This document shows, in pieces, positions 26,528 through 32,463 of a DNA stretch of 35,113 nt. Origin of the DNA: Escherichia coli (GTDB lineage Bacteria > Pseudomonadota > Gammaproteobacteria > Enterobacterales > Enterobacteriaceae); assembly GCF_003334335.1 (NCBI RefSeq), contig NZ_QOWQ01000044.1. One strand, given 5' to 3'. The notes under the pieces are model-generated. The model was not told the DNA's origin and did no database searches. It worked only from the letters and a program-made list of their open reading frames with translations. The stretch's first letter is position 1, and the number at the start of each line of letters is the position of its first letter. The position numbers and the translations under genes are program-made.

Positions 26528-28114
26528 ATGGCACATCCACCACGGCTTAATGACGACAAACCGGTTATCTGGACGGTATCTGTAACGCGCCTGTTCGAGC
26601 TGTTTCGCGATATCAGCCTCGAGTTTGATCACCTGGCGAACATTACCCCTATTCAGCTTGGCTTTGAAAAAGCAGTGACCTACATCCGCAAGAAACTGGC
26701 AAACGAACGCTGTGACGCCATCATCGCGGCTGGCTCTAACGGCGCGTACCTGAAAAGCCGCCTGTCAGTGCCAGTTATTTTGATTAAACCGAGCGGCTAC
26801 GATGTGTTACAGGCACTGGCAAAAGCCGGAAAACTCACCTCTTCTATCGGCGTTGTCACCTATCAGGAAACCATTCCAGCGCTGGTGGCGTTTCAAAAAA
26901 CCTTTAATTTGCGCCTCGACCAACGTAGCTACATTACCGAGGAAGACGCACGCGGGCAGATTAACGAGCTAAAAGCTAACGGCACCGAAGCGGTGGTCGG
27001 CGCAGGGCTGATTACCGATTTGGCAGAAGAAGCCGGAATGACCGGAATTTTTATCTATTCCGCCGCCACCGTGCGCCAGGCGTTCAGCGATGCGCTGGAT
27101 ATGACGCGCATGTCGTTACGCCATAACACTCACGATGCCACCCGCAACGCCCTGCGTACTCGTTACGTGCTGGGCGATATGCTCGGTCAATCACCACAGA
27201 TGGAACAAGTACGGCAGACTATTTTGCTGTATGCCCGCTCCAGTGCGGCGGTGTTGATTGAGGGGGAAACGGGGACGGGCAAAGAGCTGGCGGCCCAGGC
27301 GATTCATCGGGAATATTTTGCCCGCCACGATGCGCGACAGGGCAAAAAGTCGCATCCGTTTGTTGCCGTCAACTGCGGGGCGATTGCCGAATCGCTGCTG
27401 GAAGCAGAACTGTTTGGCTATGAGGAAGGGGCGTTTACCGGCTCGCGACGCGGAGGTCGCGCCGGGCTGTTCGAAATTGCCCACGGCGGTACGCTGTTTC
27501 TGGATGAGATTGGCGAAATGCCGCTACCTTTGCAGACCCGGCTGCTGCGGGTGCTGGAAGAAAAAGAGGTCACCCGCGTCGGCGGGCATCAGCCTGTTCC
27601 GGTAGATGTACGGGTCATTAGCGCCACTCACTGCAATCTGGAAGAAGATATGCAGCAAGGACGTTTTCGCCGTGATCTGTTTTATCGGCTGAGTATTTTG
27701 CGTCTGCAATTGCCACCACTGCGCGAGCGGGTGGCGGATATTCTTCCGCTGGCGGAAAGCTTTTTGAAAGTGTCTCTGGCGGCGCTCTCCGCCCCATTTT
27801 CTGCTGCATTACGCCAGGGGTTACAGGCAAGTGAAACTGTGCTGCTGCACTACGACTGGCCAGGCAATATTCGTGAACTGCGCAATATGATGGAACGACT
27901 GGCGCTGTTTTTAAGTGTGGAACCGACGCCGGATTTAACGCCGCAGTTTATGCAACTGCTACTGCCGGAACTGGCGCGCGAGTCGGCGAAAACTCCCGCT
28001 CCACGCTTACTGACACCACAACAGGCACTGGAGAAATTTAATGGCGATAAAACAGCAGCGGCGAATTATTTAGGCATCAGCCGGACGACGTTCTGGCGGC
28101 GGCTGAAAAGCTGA
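26528..28114 (+). CDS. prpR: sigma54-dependent transcriptional activator of prpBCDE
   Basis: ORF track starts at 26516; ATG at 26528 gives [10 protein letters not shown]... (528 aa); AAA+ Walker [14 protein letters not shown] motif, C-terminal HTH. Confidence 0.94.
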
Positions 28115-28211
28115 ACTGCCGAATGCAGCGCGAACGCTTTATCCGGCATAAATTTCAATAGATGATCACCGATAAACTTACGCATCGGAGATGTTTACAT
28201 AGGATTCAGAA

Positions 28212-28487
28212 TTACTTCTTCTTATAAATATTTGCCGTGCCGTGGATCTTATTGTCAGTTTGACCGGAGGTCAGTACCAACACATCAGCCCCTTTTTCAT
28301 CCGCTTTTTTGATCAAATCTTCTTTTGCATCTGCAGTCGACATTTCATTGCTGGTTGAAATATCACCTATTTTTTCATACTGCGATTCAACTTTTTCAAA
28401 TTCCGCTTTGGTCATCAATTCAGCGGCATAGACATTGGTAACGGCTAACGCTAACGCACCGACTAACATTTTAGAGATTATTTTCAT
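28212..28487 (-). CDS. yahO: small secreted DUF1471 (YhcN/BhsA-like) protein
   Basis: 91-aa ORF with N-terminal signal peptide ([21 protein letters not shown]) and a lysine-rich C-terminus typical of this family. Confidence 0.88.
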
Positions 28488-28633
28488 ATTACGGCTCCAG
28501 AGTTGTTATCACACTATCACCCACCCACATTATTGGGTTGATTAATAATTAGTTCAGTCAGGGCATAAACGCCAGTAACCGGAAATAAGACACTTTGTGA
28601 TCTCTCTCGTACCCGATTATTTTTGGTAGAAAT

Positions 28634-29305
28634 ATGATGCAGTTAGTTCACTTATTTATGGATGAAATCACTATGGATCCTTTGCATGCCGTTTACCTGA
28701 CCGTAGGACTGTTCGTGATTACTTTTTTTAATCCGGGAGCCAATCTCTTTGTGGTAGTACAAACCAGCCTGGCTTCCGGTCGACGCGCAGGGGTGCTGAC
28801 CGGGCTGGGCGTGGCGCTGGGCGATGCATTTTATTCCGGGTTGGGTTTGTTTGGTCTTGCAACGCTAATTACGCAGTGTGAGGAGATTTTTTCGCTTATC
28901 AGAATCGTCGGCGGCGCTTATCTCTTATGGTTTGCGTGGTGCAGCATGCGCCGCCAGTCAACACCGCAAATGAGCACACTACAACAACCGATTAGCGCCC
29001 CCTGGTATGTCTTTTTTCGCCGCGGATTAATTACCGATCTCTCTAACCCGCAAACCGTTTTATTTTTTATCAGTATTTTCTCAGTAACATTAAATGCCGA
29101 AACACCAACATGGGCACGTTTAATGGCCTGGGCGGGGATTGTGCTCGCATCAATTATCTGGCGAGTTTTTCTTAGTCAGGCGTTTTCTTTGCCCGCTGTG
29201 CGTCGTGCTTATGGGCGTATGCAACGCGTTGCCAGTCGGGTTATTGGTGCAATTATTGGTGTATTCGCGCTACGCCTGATTTACGAAGGGGTGACGCAGC
29301 GGTGA
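28634..29305 (+). CDS. yahN: LysE/RhtB-family amino-acid exporter
   Basis: 223-aa hydrophobic ORF; family call from recognition of the sequence and of the K-12 gene order. Confidence 0.82.
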   Translation: MMQLVHLFMDEITMDPLHAVYLTVGLFVITFFNPGANLFVVVQTSLASGRRAGVLTGLGVALGDAFYSGLGLFGLATLITQCEEIFSLIRIVGGAYLLWFAWCSMRRQSTPQMSTLQQPISAPWYVFFRRGLITDLSNPQTVLFFISIFSVTLNAETPTWARLMAWAGIVLASIIWRVFLSQAFSLPAVRRAYGRMQRVASRVIGAIIGVFALRLIYEGVTQR

Positions 29306-29321
29306 GCAGATAATTTACTCT

Positions 29322-29567
29322 CTACGTAATCAACCTGATTTGCCGAATCACGGCCATCGGCGATGATAGCCCCCGTAATGCGTGGTCCTTATTTCCGATA
29401 AGTTTACTTGAGTCTTTAGCTTCCCATTTCAGCCCACTCTCCCCTGTGTGGGCTTTTTTCATTGGTCTGCCCCATCCTGAATAGCCAAACAATGGCAATG
29501 TTCCACGTTGCAGGGATGATAATAAGGGGATCTGATTCAGAAGAGTTTTGAAAAGTTGGACCGCCAT
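29322..29567 (-). CDS. yahM: small protein of unknown function
   Basis: ORF track gives 91 aa from 29597; Met at 29567 gives 81 aa, matching the yahM length I recall; no recognisable domain, so coding status is the weakest in the window. Confidence 0.55.
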   Translation of the reverse strand: MAVQLFKTLLNQIPLLSSLQRGTLPLFGYSGWGRPMKKAHTGESGLKWEAKDSSKLIGNKDHALRGLSSPMAVIRQIRLIT

Positions 29568-29979
29568 CGAGGCCTCGAACCCCGTACCATACAACAATCC
29601 TGGTTGTCGTCTGCTCTTCCTGATGAGCTAATGGCGGTTTTTGATATGAGCCTTACAGCATATTTTCTGTCAGGCTTGAGTGCGATGCGTAAGATACAGA
29701 AAAGACCCCACACAAACATGATGGAATTATGATTTTTTTCATATGAATGTCAACCAACACATTCACAAAACATCTGCATGAGATCATTTTTTATACACCG
29801 CATGGCTGCGAAACCACTACTGGTGCTTTTTTAAGCGAAGTGTCGCCGATCACAACAAAATATCGGCGAAAAAAGAGATGGAATGCCAGTTGGCATACAG
29901 ATATACAGATGAAATGATTACCTGCATTGCGATTCACTCTCAGGTGGAATAACAACTTGCAGGTGGAACCCTTTCTGAA

Positions 29980-30795
29980 CTAAAGAGTGTAGCGGATTTT
30001 AACGTGCTTATTTACAGGATAATATCTGTCACCTAATTCCTGCACTCTATTAGATATCCATTCATTTAATCGCGCATCATCTCTGTATGTTTTTACGTCC
30101 AGAACAGAGAGCAATAACATCACCAGTGATTCAGGAAAAACAGGGTAGATATTTTTTAAGTGTAATAATAATCCATGCGCAAGCGCCTGCTTAATGGGCG
30201 CGTCTGTCTCCGGAATAGACGACATTTCGCGAAGCCATTTTTCCACATGCATACACTCTTTCCCTTTAGGGAAAATTCTCAGCAAAGGCATATGGTATTC
30301 AAGAAGAATACATTTGCAATCTGTTCGCACTGAATCGATAAACTGCACTAATTTCTTAAGCCCGGTAAAGCGTCCAGCCTGCACGTTTGCTTTAATATCA
30401 AGAAACGCATCATCCTGGTCATATACCCAAACTGTCCCTTTTTGATTTTCAAGTATGTGAAAAACAAACTTAACCGGGTGATCAGGGTAATCCATCCAGT
30501 CATAAAATCCAGGGAAATCATTAAACTGCACATTTATGGTGAGTGCGTTATCGTCTGACCACTCACAGTCTCGTACGGCAGCCATGAGATGAATGAGTTT
30601 GTCGTCATCGACTAAATCATCACGACAATCATAAGGATAATCATAATATTGTTTAATCAAAACCTTGAATATATCGACACAGGAAACCAGGGAGCTTTTG
30701 ATATCCTCTGGTAACTGATTGTTTTTAACCGTATTAAGTATGCTTTGTTGCGTATATGGCATCAAATTATTGTGCGGAGCTTTTAATGATATCAT
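29980..30795 (-). CDS. yahL: protein of unknown function
   Basis: 271-aa ORF in a visibly AT-rich stretch; no motif I recognise; acidic and Cys-containing N-terminal half. Confidence 0.8.
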   Translation of the reverse strand: MISLKAPHNNLMPYTQQSILNTVKNNQLPEDIKSSLVSCVDIFKVLIKQYYDYPYDCRDDLVDDDKLIHLMAAVRDCEWSDDNALTINVQFNDFPGFYDWMDYPDHPVKFVFHILENQKGTVWVYDQDDAFLDIKANVQAGRFTGLKKLVQFIDSVRTDCKCILLEYHMPLLRIFPKGKECMHVEKWLREMSSIPETDAPIKQALAHGLLLHLKNIYPVFPESLVMLLLSVLDVKTYRDDARLNEWISNRVQELGDRYYPVNKHVKIRYTL

Positions 30796-30962
30796 CGCGA
30801 TCTCTCTTAAATAAAAATAAACGTCGCAGATAATAAAGCTCTGATTAAACCAGGCACTATCAGAAATCGCTCATAACTAACGTGTGAAGTATTGTGTACT
30901 GGAGGGCGTTAATTTAACAATTTAAATTTACGTTATAGGTTTTACTGCTACTTTGATATTAT

Positions 30963-31000
30963 TTCGCTCTCCTTAACTAAAAAGTTAAGTGGAGAGCGAA
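30963..31000. other. 38-bp near-perfect palindrome between yahK and yahL
   Basis: ttcgctctcc ttaac taaaaa gttaa gt ggagagcgaa: 10-bp outer stem plus 5-bp inner stem; 38 bp beyond the yahK stop; no adjacent U-tract, so not a canonical intrinsic terminator. Confidence 0.7.
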
Positions 31001-31037
31001 GTTAATATGTTAAACCACAGGGTATTTATTAATTTTT

Positions 31038-32087
31038 TCAGTCTGTTAGTGTGCGATTATCGATAACAAAACGATATTTCACATCACCGCGCAGCATTCG
31101 CTCATAGGCTTCATTAATTTGATCGGCCCGAATCATCTCTATATCAGCCACGATGCCATGTTCGGCGCAAAAATCGAGCATCTCCTGAGTTTCTGGAATG
31201 CCGCCAATCATAGAACCGGCTATCGCACGGCGTTTCATGATCAGGTTGAAAACTTCCGGCGATTTATGCGGTGTCGCAGGCGCACCAACCAGCGTCATGG
31301 TGCCATCACGCTTCAGCAAGGTGGTAAAATCGTCGAGATTATGTGGCGCAGCTACTGTATTCAAAATGAAATCGAAACTCTTCAGATGAGCCGCCATCTC
31401 ATCGGCATTGCGTGAGTTAACAACTTCATCGGCCCCCAGGGCTTTTGCCGCTTCGCGTTTTGCCTCAGAAGTGGTAAATGCCACCACATGTGCCCCCATC
31501 GCGTGGGCCAGCTTAATCCCCATATGTCCCAGACCGCCGATGCCGACCACGCCCACTTTTTTACCCGGCCCGGCCTGCCAGTGACGTAGCGGCGAATACG
31601 TGGTGATCCCTGCACACAACAAAGGAGCCACCGCCGCCAGCTGCTCTTGCGGGTGACGAATACGCAGAACATATCGCTCATGAACGACGATCTGTTGTGA
31701 GTAGCCGCCCAGAGTATGGCCCGGTTCGTCCGGCGTCGGCGAGTTATAGGTGCCGGTCATGTGATCACAGTAGTTTTCCAACCCGTCTTCACACTCTTCG
31801 CAATGTTTACAACTGTCGACAATGCAGCCGACACCGACCAGATCGCCCGGCGCATATTTTTCTACCTGATCACCAACGGCTACCACACGCCCCACAATTT
31901 CATGACCCGGCACGCAGGGGTAAACCGTCCCCGCCCACTCGGAACGGACCTGGTGGAGATCGGAATGGCAAACGCCACAGTAAGCGATTTCGATTTTGAC
32001 ATCATTCGGTCCCGGTTCACGCCGGGTGATATCCATCGGTTCAAGTGGTTGTTTAGCGGAATATGCACCAACAGCTTTGATCTTCAT
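31038..32087 (-). CDS. yahK: NADPH-dependent aldehyde reductase (zinc-type alcohol dehydrogenase)
   Basis: 349-aa ORF with the zinc-ADH signature GHEIVGRV, structural-zinc cysteine cluster and GxGGLG cofactor loop. Confidence 0.94.
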   Translation of the reverse strand: MKIKAVGAYSAKQPLEPMDITRREPGPNDVKIEIAYCGVCHSDLHQVRSEWAGTVYPCVPGHEIVGRVVAVGDQVEKYAPGDLVGVGCIVDSCKHCEECEDGLENYCDHMTGTYNSPTPDEPGHTLGGYSQQIVVHERYVLRIRHPQEQLAAVAPLLCAGITTYSPLRHWQAGPGKKVGVVGIGGLGHMGIKLAHAMGAHVVAFTTSEAKREAAKALGADEVVNSRNADEMAAHLKSFDFILNTVAAPHNLDDFTTLLKRDGTMTLVGAPATPHKSPEVFNLIMKRRAIAGSMIGGIPETQEMLDFCAEHGIVADIEMIRADQINEAYERMLRGDVKYRFVIDNRTLTD

Positions 32088-32463
32088 TGTGTTTACTCCT
32101 GATTAGCTATGTGTATTTGGCAACGCCTGATATGTCATCGCGGCAAAACGCGTCCATTGAATATAGCCAATATTTAAACCACCCGATCCAGCCCCAACAT
32201 GCCGCGAGCCTGAATGAAACAGAGCAGCAACGTTCCCCATAAGGCGAGCGCCTGTAAGTGTGATATTTGCTATCTGTAAAAGACTAAAATCGGCAAAACT
32301 GATGATCTTTTCACGTAGACAAATAGTTATCTACACAACGTCAATAAGGGCATATTCCTCAAAGATAATGTCCATTTCTGCCGACACACTCATATTCAGA
32401 TTGCCCCACTCCCTGGGGCTTAAATCTCTTACTATTCACCGTTGCAGGCGTTTCAAATGCGCA

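Follow-up and report, generated by a model that had tools for sequence, protein, structure and literature searches.

The closest described counterpart of the locus studied here is xtpA (b4845), a small gene of Escherichia coli K-12. By its title, the report of Muto et al. [quoted passage not shown] It is cited in the RegulonDB v12 paper, where XtpA is listed as a newly added small protein (PMC10767902). Here, we analyse the AT-rich islet around this gene in a 35,113-nt stretch of E. coli DNA (assembly GCF_003334335.1, contig NZ_QOWQ01000044.1), which as a whole is called the window. The islet comprises the orphan gene yahL, a 412-bp spacer (29568–29979) and the annotated gene yahM, and an 81-nt tRNA-like element overlaps xtpA in the spacer.

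Three known systems invite comparison with this element. The transfer-messenger RNA (tmRNA, SsrA) is one bacterial RNA that is both tRNA-shaped and translated; its tRNA-like domain is formed by both ends and charged with alanine, and its open reading frame (ORF) has no start codon. Lambdoid and Shiga toxin (Stx) phages carry late tRNA clusters of the order ileZ-argN-argO, in which the argN slot can be taken by variants annotated as 'tRNA-OTHER'. Phage tRNAs with altered anticodon arms escape tRNA-cleaving defences (PMC10264068), among them PARIS (PMC11464382), P2 OLD (PMC12445682) and retron Eco7 (PMC11555353).

We find that the islet is probably a mosaic of a tRNA-like transcription unit on the minus strand, the genuine gene yahL and the non-gene yahM. 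On the origin of the unit, our judgement is evenly balanced for the proposal that what came first and is under selection here is the tRNA-shaped RNA rather than the XtpA peptide. A phage argN-type tRNA would have lost decoding, gained a strong host promoter and been domesticated as a tRNA mimic in the Escherichia ancestor, the XtpA frame would have opened de novo later, and yahM would be a by-product.

Results

The spacer holds the xtpA gene and a tRNA-like element

The region is the yahJ-yahK-yahL-yahM-yahN-yahO-prpR segment of E. coli K-12 in reversed orientation. The original prediction, made from the sequence, had placed yahL, yahM and the 412-bp spacer correctly (Table 1) and had taken the spacer for gene-free DNA with no convincing ORF. 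The latter is wrong, as the spacer holds a 60-codon ORF, the tRNA-like element and the best promoter match of the region. The ORF product is named XtpA in UniRef, and the RefSeq annotation of MG1655 has xtpA on the same bases (345252–345434, 'putative transcriptional regulator XtpA'). The minus strand of 29512–29752, which includes xtpA, is 100% identical to MG1655. The small gene of the spacer is the published leaderless xtpA mRNA, and the core of the locus is already known. The spacer had also been named the likeliest site of an unannotated small RNA or small protein; xtpA confirms the site, whereas the gene was published in 2022 and is present in both MG1655 RefSeq and RegulonDB.

The CATAAT box of the promoter ends at 29726 and is followed by 6 nt and then the ATG at 29719. 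The predicted transcription start is therefore the A of the ATG, with no 5′ untranslated region. The promoter is 87–97% identical across the Escherichia lineages. In a massively parallel reporter study, a promoter upstream of yahM proved active and was subject to repression by integration host factor (IHF) (bioRxiv 10.1101/2025.05.13.653802); no match to the IHF consensus within 1 mismatch lies near the promoter. With 11 of 12 consensus positions in place and a reporter-active promoter upstream of yahM, the core of the spacer is not the silent AT-rich DNA that had been supposed.

ARAGORN makes a single tRNA-like call in 28000–32000, labelled Ser(GGA), in which the anticodon lies at position 38 where about 34 would be usual. 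The element has a 7-bp acceptor stem, U8, a GCUC/GAGC D stem with G18G19, a CGGGG/CCUCG T stem with a UUCGAGG loop, a discriminator U and an encoded CCA. Its acceptor stem, its D arm with G18G19, its T arm with GTTCGA and its 3′ CCA are thus those of a canonical tRNA. The cloverleaf is the minimum-free-energy fold of the element alone and is also kept in a 200-nt transcript context.

The xtpA ORF runs straight through the element, which makes up its codons 28–54 (27 of the 60). The preceding codons 2–27 are 80–87% identical in the divergent lineages. A pairing of the transcript 5′ end with the yahN terminator region (repeat I1) is not kept in E. albertii and was treated as chance.

Table 1. 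Features of the yahM–yahL islet in window coordinates
Feature	Position	Strand	Basis or remark
yahM ORF, 81 amino acids	29322..29567	-	start within the 3′ end of the tRNA-like element
yahN terminator-like hairpin with T-run, inside the yahM ORF	29430..29461	+	read from the sequence
xtpA (b4845), 60-amino-acid ORF of a leaderless mRNA	29537..29719	-	ORF list, MG1655 annotation
81-nt tRNA-like element	29557..29637	-	ARAGORN, cloverleaf fold, phage/plasmid homology
Stretch between ATG and tRNA-like element, xtpA codons 2–27	29638..29716	-	moderately conserved, two predicted hairpins
AT-rich zone (distal spacer, yahL and yahL–yahK intergenic region)	29640..31037		GC content in 300-bp windows
Sigma-70 promoter TTGACA-N16-CATAAT	29726..29753	-	11/12 consensus positions, best site in 29250–31100
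Distal spacer	29756..29966		poorly conserved, no conserved ORF
yahL cassette	29967..30802		segment absent from ~1,150 E. coli genomes, e.g. sequence type 95 (ST95)
yahL, gene of a 271-amino-acid orphan protein	29980..30795	-	ORF, purifying selection
yahL–yahK intergenic region	30796..31037		most AT-rich piece; presumed yahL promoter region and hairpin 30963–31000

The element is invariant even where the XtpA frame is broken

The locus was retrieved from 29 species-level genomes with the conserved neighbour YahN as the anchor. In Citrobacter, Salmonella and Edwardsiella, yahN is present and has no yahM, tRNA-like element, yahL or yahK beside it. The element is identical at 81 of 81 positions in K-12, ST95, the metagenome-assembled genome L006, Escherichia sp. 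E1V33 (L007), the divergent 'E. coli' species representative L008 and E. albertii. In the lineages with this perfect match, the adjoining 5′ coding stretch of xtpA and the promoter diverge by 9–15%, and identity falls within a few bases of both predicted tRNA ends.

The element is the most constrained sequence of the locus. At the rate of the conserved neighbouring sequence, zero changes in 81 nt have P = 4e-4 to 1.5e-6 per lineage. The neutral synonymous divergence (dS) of the flanking genes to L008 is about 0.65 (0.63–0.70).

Among 5426 complete E. coli genomes, 5170 have the element and 4822 have it without a change. The other 348 carry a single mismatch, and two of them were fetched. One, an O157-type strain, has U63C, which turns the T-stem G51.U63 wobble into a G-C pair. 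In the other, MY504, it is the first C of the CCA that differs, and the record has other pseudogenes too. Escherichia sp. MOD1-EC7003 (L031) has deleted the equivalent of 29515–29952, namely the xtpA promoter, the element and most of the spacer. At L031:6670-6900, only the 3′ end of yahL is kept, followed by unrelated DNA.

The XtpA frame varies in the same set. Its codon 4 is TGG in E. coli, AAG in L007 and the stop TAG in L008 and E. albertii, and the frame has a 1-nt deletion in L006. The XtpA variants within E. coli are changed at residues 3, 9, 15, 16, 19, 21 and 27 and in the last six. Residues 28–54 have no substitutions and only a one-residue deletion in one short Shigella sonnei contig. 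The element stays at 81/81 even where the frame is broken, so a cloverleaf RNA or the DNA, not the protein, explains the invariance.

Could the XtpA peptide be the sole functional product, with the invariant block reflecting protein-coding constraint on a 60-residue regulator? The published title names a peptide regulating GcvB, and K-12, ST95 and most E. coli members of the XtpA cluster have the ORF intact, but all synonymous sites in the 27 codons are invariant at a dS of about 0.65. Moreover, the block is bounded by the tRNA ends rather than the ORF ends, it persists behind the codon-4 stop of L008 and E. albertii, and the amino acid changes gather in the non-tRNA parts of XtpA. Hence, we regard the peptide as an unlikely sole product. 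In E. coli, the peptide may be functional as well, in line with the publication.

Only the element resembles phage DNA

Within a 1.7-kb query, only the 81-nt element matches phage DNA; no phage similarity was found for the promoter, the 5′ coding stretch of xtpA, the yahM body or yahL. The element is 80–86% identical to the argN-slot genes of phage and plasmid tRNA clusters, with the acceptor, D and T arms, the discriminator and the CCA in common. In phiP27, the homologue (L004:3001-3082) carries no annotation; it sits between ileZ and argO, immediately upstream of stx2e. In the E. coli plasmid pHX138.261ft_1 (L002:4001-4081), it is a 'tRNA-OTHER' between tRNA-Ile and tRNA-Arg, with a DNA methyltransferase gene on one side and a sialate O-acetylesterase fragment on the other; the methyltransferase–tRNA order is as in phiP27. 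The Yersinia phage homologues are annotated 'tRNA-OTHER/Pseudo' and follow the Q antiterminator gene, in YeP1 ahead of tRNA-Met and tRNA-Gly.

The acceptor and T-arm sequences of the element are those of canonical phage tRNA-Arg(UCG). A scan of IMG/VR by these T-arm and acceptor sequences gave 120 hits (loci L035–L154). As the T arm and the 3′ acceptor strand were set by the search pattern, their sameness is no evidence; the D arm and the 5′ strand were left free. The scaffold is mostly canonical tRNA-Arg(UCG), also tRNA-Arg(UCU).

About a quarter of the hits (e.g. L132, L131, L130, L048 and L110) have non-standard anticodon loops, with anticodon stems that still pair. These loops are of a 6-nt type (e.g. 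CAUUAA), an A33 type (e.g. CAUUUAA) or the phiP27 type that ARAGORN leaves uncalled. Such argN-scaffold variants with odd loops may be functional tRNA variants or mimics, not dead genes. No donor phage with the anticodon arm of the window copy was found in IMG/VR, and the nearest is L110.

In the window, the element is chromosomal and solitary, has its own promoter and is neighboured by yahL, yahM and yahN. It is not in a phage late-region context of the Q or methyltransferase gene, tRNAs and lysis or stx genes. Neither integrase or phage genes beside it nor a bounding repeat of the tRNA 3′ end were found; the only match is one of 10 nt at chance level (D9).

The invariant block might instead act as DNA, as an attachment site or a protein-binding site. 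The tRNA genes and tRNA-like sequences are classic integrase targets, and some genomes have insertion sequences in the region. But an attachment core is usually far shorter than 81 nt, and there is no integrase, prophage or bounding 3′-end repeat here. Since the conserved boundaries are also the tRNA ends and the T-stem variant keeps its pairing, a role at the DNA level seems very improbable.

The anticodon arm departs from that of a decoding tRNA

The D-to-T-arm distance of the element is 28 nt, compared with about 23 nt usually. Its anticodon arm is either a 7-bp stem with a 6-nt loop CCAGGA or has a loop CAGGAUU with A33 and U37. The usual 5-bp anticodon stem and 7-nt loop with U33 and a purine at position 37 are lacking. 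With this aberrant arm, the element is therefore no ordinary decoder.

That it is a genuine decoding tRNA-Ser(GGA) missed by annotation can hardly be entertained, although it is conserved at the tRNA level, was called by ARAGORN and has the 7-bp acceptor stem, G18G19, the GTTCGA T loop and an encoded CCA. Four extra nucleotides sit in its anticodon arm in either pairing, and it has no long variable arm, which the identity rules require for recognition by seryl-tRNA synthetase. E. coli serW and serX already serve the GGA anticodon, and the element has neither an Rfam tRNA match at E <= 10 nor a call from the Prokaryotic Genome Annotation Pipeline (PGAP).

Just as improbable is that the element is a remnant in decay and without function, left by an ancient lambdoid prophage tRNA cluster, and that the promoter and ORFs are incidental: the phage ancestry with no other phage gene left nearby, the damaged anticodon arm and the loss from L031 and about 5% of E. 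coli genomes fit it, but zero substitutions were observed against a neutral expectation of roughly 8–30 per lineage, the promoter is conserved too and U63C (one of the two variants fetched) improves a base pair, so that the conservation analysis largely refutes it.

yahM is probably mis-annotated

The first codons of yahM, ATG GCG GTC CAA, are the 3′ acceptor strand of the element with its discriminator and CCA. Its frame is open for only 11 codons in L008, 17 in L007 and 31 in E. albertii, and has a stop at codon 12 in the O157-type strain. The yahM body is 45–90% identical across the lineages. Between K-12 and ST95, yahM has 0 synonymous and 7 nonsynonymous changes, while yahN has 11 and 2 (Fisher p = 0.0005).

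The terminator-like hairpin of yahN inside the yahM ORF aligns to a hairpin-plus-U-run RNA model, while a simple terminator scan missed it. The convergent overlap of yahM and yahN has been reported (PMC12288877), as have expression changes of 'yahM' (PMC7649339, PMC12389024, PMC12288877). These changes may be read-through from the xtpA promoter. Judged by its sequence, yahM is probably a mis-annotation and no conserved protein gene. It would borrow its start codon from the 3′ end of the element and overlap the yahN terminator, and a functional protein from it seems unlikely.

The islet is AT-rich and its distal spacer is poorly conserved

The GC content in 300-bp windows is 0.33–0.41 in the AT-rich zone and 0.53–0.60 in the flanks. 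The original prediction of an AT-rich islet is borne out: 29568–31037 has a GC of 0.388 compared with 0.5365 for the whole window. The lowest-GC stretch of 1470 bp in the 35 kb has 0.382 and starts at 29611 (sliding mean 0.535, standard deviation 0.04), so that 29568–31037 is essentially the minimum of the window for this length. By segment, the GC is 0.388 in yahL, 0.425 in the spacer and 0.322 in the yahL–yahK intergenic region. The tRNA-like element is not itself AT-rich, so the low-GC zone truly starts at about 29640. The GC at third codon positions (GC3) is 0.39 in yahL, compared with 0.49–0.68 in yahN, yahK, prpR and yahJ.

The distal spacer is 70% identical in L008 and cannot be aligned in L007 and E. 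albertii; its overall range is 39–70% where aligned. As candidates for small proteins in the spacer, five ORFs of 44–60 codons were considered and rejected, all being broken across the lineages (including xtpA outside E. coli proper). No Rfam family matches the spacer.

yahL is a real but dispensable orphan

The yahL ORF is intact with 271 codons in the divergent lineage L008, at a ratio of nonsynonymous to synonymous divergence (dN/dS) of 0.17 and a dS of 0.66. By these sequence comparisons, yahL is a real protein gene under purifying selection. Its dS equals those of the flanking genes between K-12 and L008 (0.70 in yahN and 0.63 in yahK), and it has therefore been inherited vertically since before the L008 split.

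No motif had been recognised in YahL, and neither the family searches nor a structure model gave an assignable family or fold. It has no Pfam, PHROG or NCBIfam family match, and a structure model from a 4-sequence alignment (mean predicted local confidence, pLDDT, of 67) has no specific fold match. No homologue outside Escherichia is found among 1.84 billion representative proteins, and its relatives are confined to E. coli and Shigella among 5.8 billion clusters and the 1.84 billion representatives. The sole distant relative is a rare E. coli paralogue, P0040, with 24% identity. This protein of 275 amino acids (L155:6001-6828, E. coli GCA_009799345.1) is encoded in a different variable region, next to genes of a DUF2686 (YjfZ-type) protein, a phage gp25-like protein and a large invasin/intimin-like protein.

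In the alignment to ST95-32, the loss consists of the yahL ORF with 13 bp and 7 bp, and no direct repeats are present at the junctions. A direct repeat ACTCTCAGGTGGAA / ACTTGCAGGTGGAA at 29936–29968 ends exactly at the left edge of the yahL-less deletion, and the right edge has no match. With the vertical history of the gene, its absence from about 1,150 genomes is secondary loss. In many other E. coli strains, yahL is frameshifted (148-amino-acid alleles) or truncated. Taken together, yahL is a weakly expressed, AT-rich and Escherichia-restricted gene whose vertical inheritance predates the separation of E. coli from its nearest clades and which has repeatedly been lost or frameshifted. It is a real but dispensable orphan.

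The prediction had suggested horizontal acquisition from the composition, and the islet is indeed compositionally foreign, by its GC and the GC3 of yahL, and lineage-restricted. The view that yahL is horizontally acquired AT-rich DNA silenced by H-NS is one to which we are neither inclined nor disinclined. It agrees with the GC of 0.388 and GC3 of 0.39, the confinement to Escherichia and a level of YahL below 1 part per million in ribosome profiling (PMC5053530), which is compatible with silencing and no proof of it. Genomic SELEX (systematic evolution of ligands by exponential enrichment) found peaks of the sigma-32, sigma-28 and sigma-24 RNA polymerase holoenzymes inside yahL (PMC5493296), and such minor-sigma peaks are typical for AT-rich DNA.

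Against the H-NS view, no donor was found, the long vertical inheritance gives a dS the same as in the flanks, and transposon insertions in yahL are reported to have a fitness effect despite the low expression (PMC5053530). A scan for the high-affinity H-NS motif does not discriminate, with 41 matches over the window compared with 29 expected and 3 in the islet. No report of H-NS occupancy over the islet was found in the literature searched.

Neighbouring features

The strong hairpin at 30963–31000 lies about 40 nt 3′ of the yahK stop (TTCGCTCTCC...GGAGAGCGAA, with inner TTAAC/GTTAA pairing). Despite the lack of a T-run after it, this is probably the terminator of yahK. Between yahK and yahJ, an ABC-transporter permease gene has left its final ~30 codons as a relic at 32177–32266 on the minus strand. 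The permease is intact in other E. coli (L156; in L003 it is beside yahK), so K-12 has lost a sugar-type ABC transporter operon.

A second AT-rich patch spans 28050–28650, where yahO has a GC of 0.388 and the yahO–yahN intergenic region 0.397. In enterotoxigenic E. coli, chromatin immunoprecipitation sequencing found a CRP site, TGTGATCTCTCTCGCA, at yahN/yahO (PMC4287617). The window has TGTGATCTCTCTCGTA at about 28597.

Between prpR and yahO, 28075–28148 on the minus strand has a sub-threshold Rfam match to naRNA4 (28.6 bits, compared with a gathering score of 59.5; E = 0.024). The naRNA4 family is a nucleoid-associated RNA derived from repetitive extragenic palindromic (REP) sequences, and an ordinary REP element probably accounts for this match. 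In ST95-32 (L003:1-812) and in a strain with frameshifted yahL (L156:7683-9268), prpR has become a pseudogene, either interrupted by an internal stop or split in two. Propionate regulation is apparently decaying in some E. coli lineages.

Discussion

The proposed course of events at the locus is as follows. The near-consensus sigma-70 promoter would start transcription on the AUG, and the transcript would carry the phage-descended 81-nt tRNA-shaped element. Its invariance despite the broken XtpA frame points to selection on the RNA fold itself. The tRNA mimic would then be recognised by the tRNA-handling machinery and either be released as a stable tRNA-shaped RNA or govern the fate of the transcript. 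The XtpA reading frame would be a later overlay in the E. coli lineage.

Several points weigh against a tRNA-shaped RNA as the selected product. A discrete stable RNA of this shape is what we infer from the sequence, and the Rfam tRNA model RF00005 has no match at E <= 1 over 3.5 kb, nor at E <= 10 over 201 nt. The PGAP annotation has no tRNA feature here in BW25113 or MG1655. The comparison includes only three lineages outside E. coli proper. The deletion in L031 and the absence from about 5% of E. coli genomes imply that the unit is dispensable. The reporter study gives no coordinates, and we infer that its yahM promoter is the one described here. Muto et al. presumably hold genetic evidence that the peptide, beyond the RNA, acts on GcvB.

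The significance is in two parts. The core feature is published, and the main value here is therefore corrective: the spacer is not empty and yahM is probably mis-annotated. What is unusual is a tRNA-like sequence of phage origin that is letter-perfect across the genus even where the overlapping peptide cannot be made. Should the functional unit be the RNA fold, the locus would be a rare instance in bacteria of a phage tRNA mimic that was domesticated, and it would also document a protein frame newly arisen over a structured RNA.

Compared with the published xtpA, the locus is the same, on the same bases and without any sequence difference. To what its title and annotation convey, we add that the block is of phage argN ancestry and invariant across the genus, that the XtpA frame is broken in E. 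albertii and in L008 and that yahM has decayed; some of these points may overlap with the content of Muto et al.

YahL has its counterparts in YdjO and YjfZ, which likewise are E. coli/Shigella-restricted signature orphans of about 270 amino acids and of unknown function; yahL itself is used as such a signature gene (PMC11057252). YahL has no BLASTP similarity to the DUF2686 (YjfZ-type) protein.

The element shares the scaffold of the argN-slot 'tRNA-OTHER' variants in the lambdoid and Stx late clusters at 80–86% identity. Unlike them, the copy in the window stands alone on the chromosome, with a promoter of its own and an anticodon arm that matches no phage copy in IMG/VR. The defence-escaping phage tRNAs are likewise phage-derived scaffolds in which the anticodon stem-loop departs from the host form and the rest is kept. 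They still decode, whereas the element probably cannot, so the likeness is a lead and no claim of membership. With tmRNA, the element has in common that a single RNA is tRNA-shaped and translated. Unlike in tmRNA, its cloverleaf lies inside a conventional leaderless ORF, and the two have no sequence or Rfam similarity.

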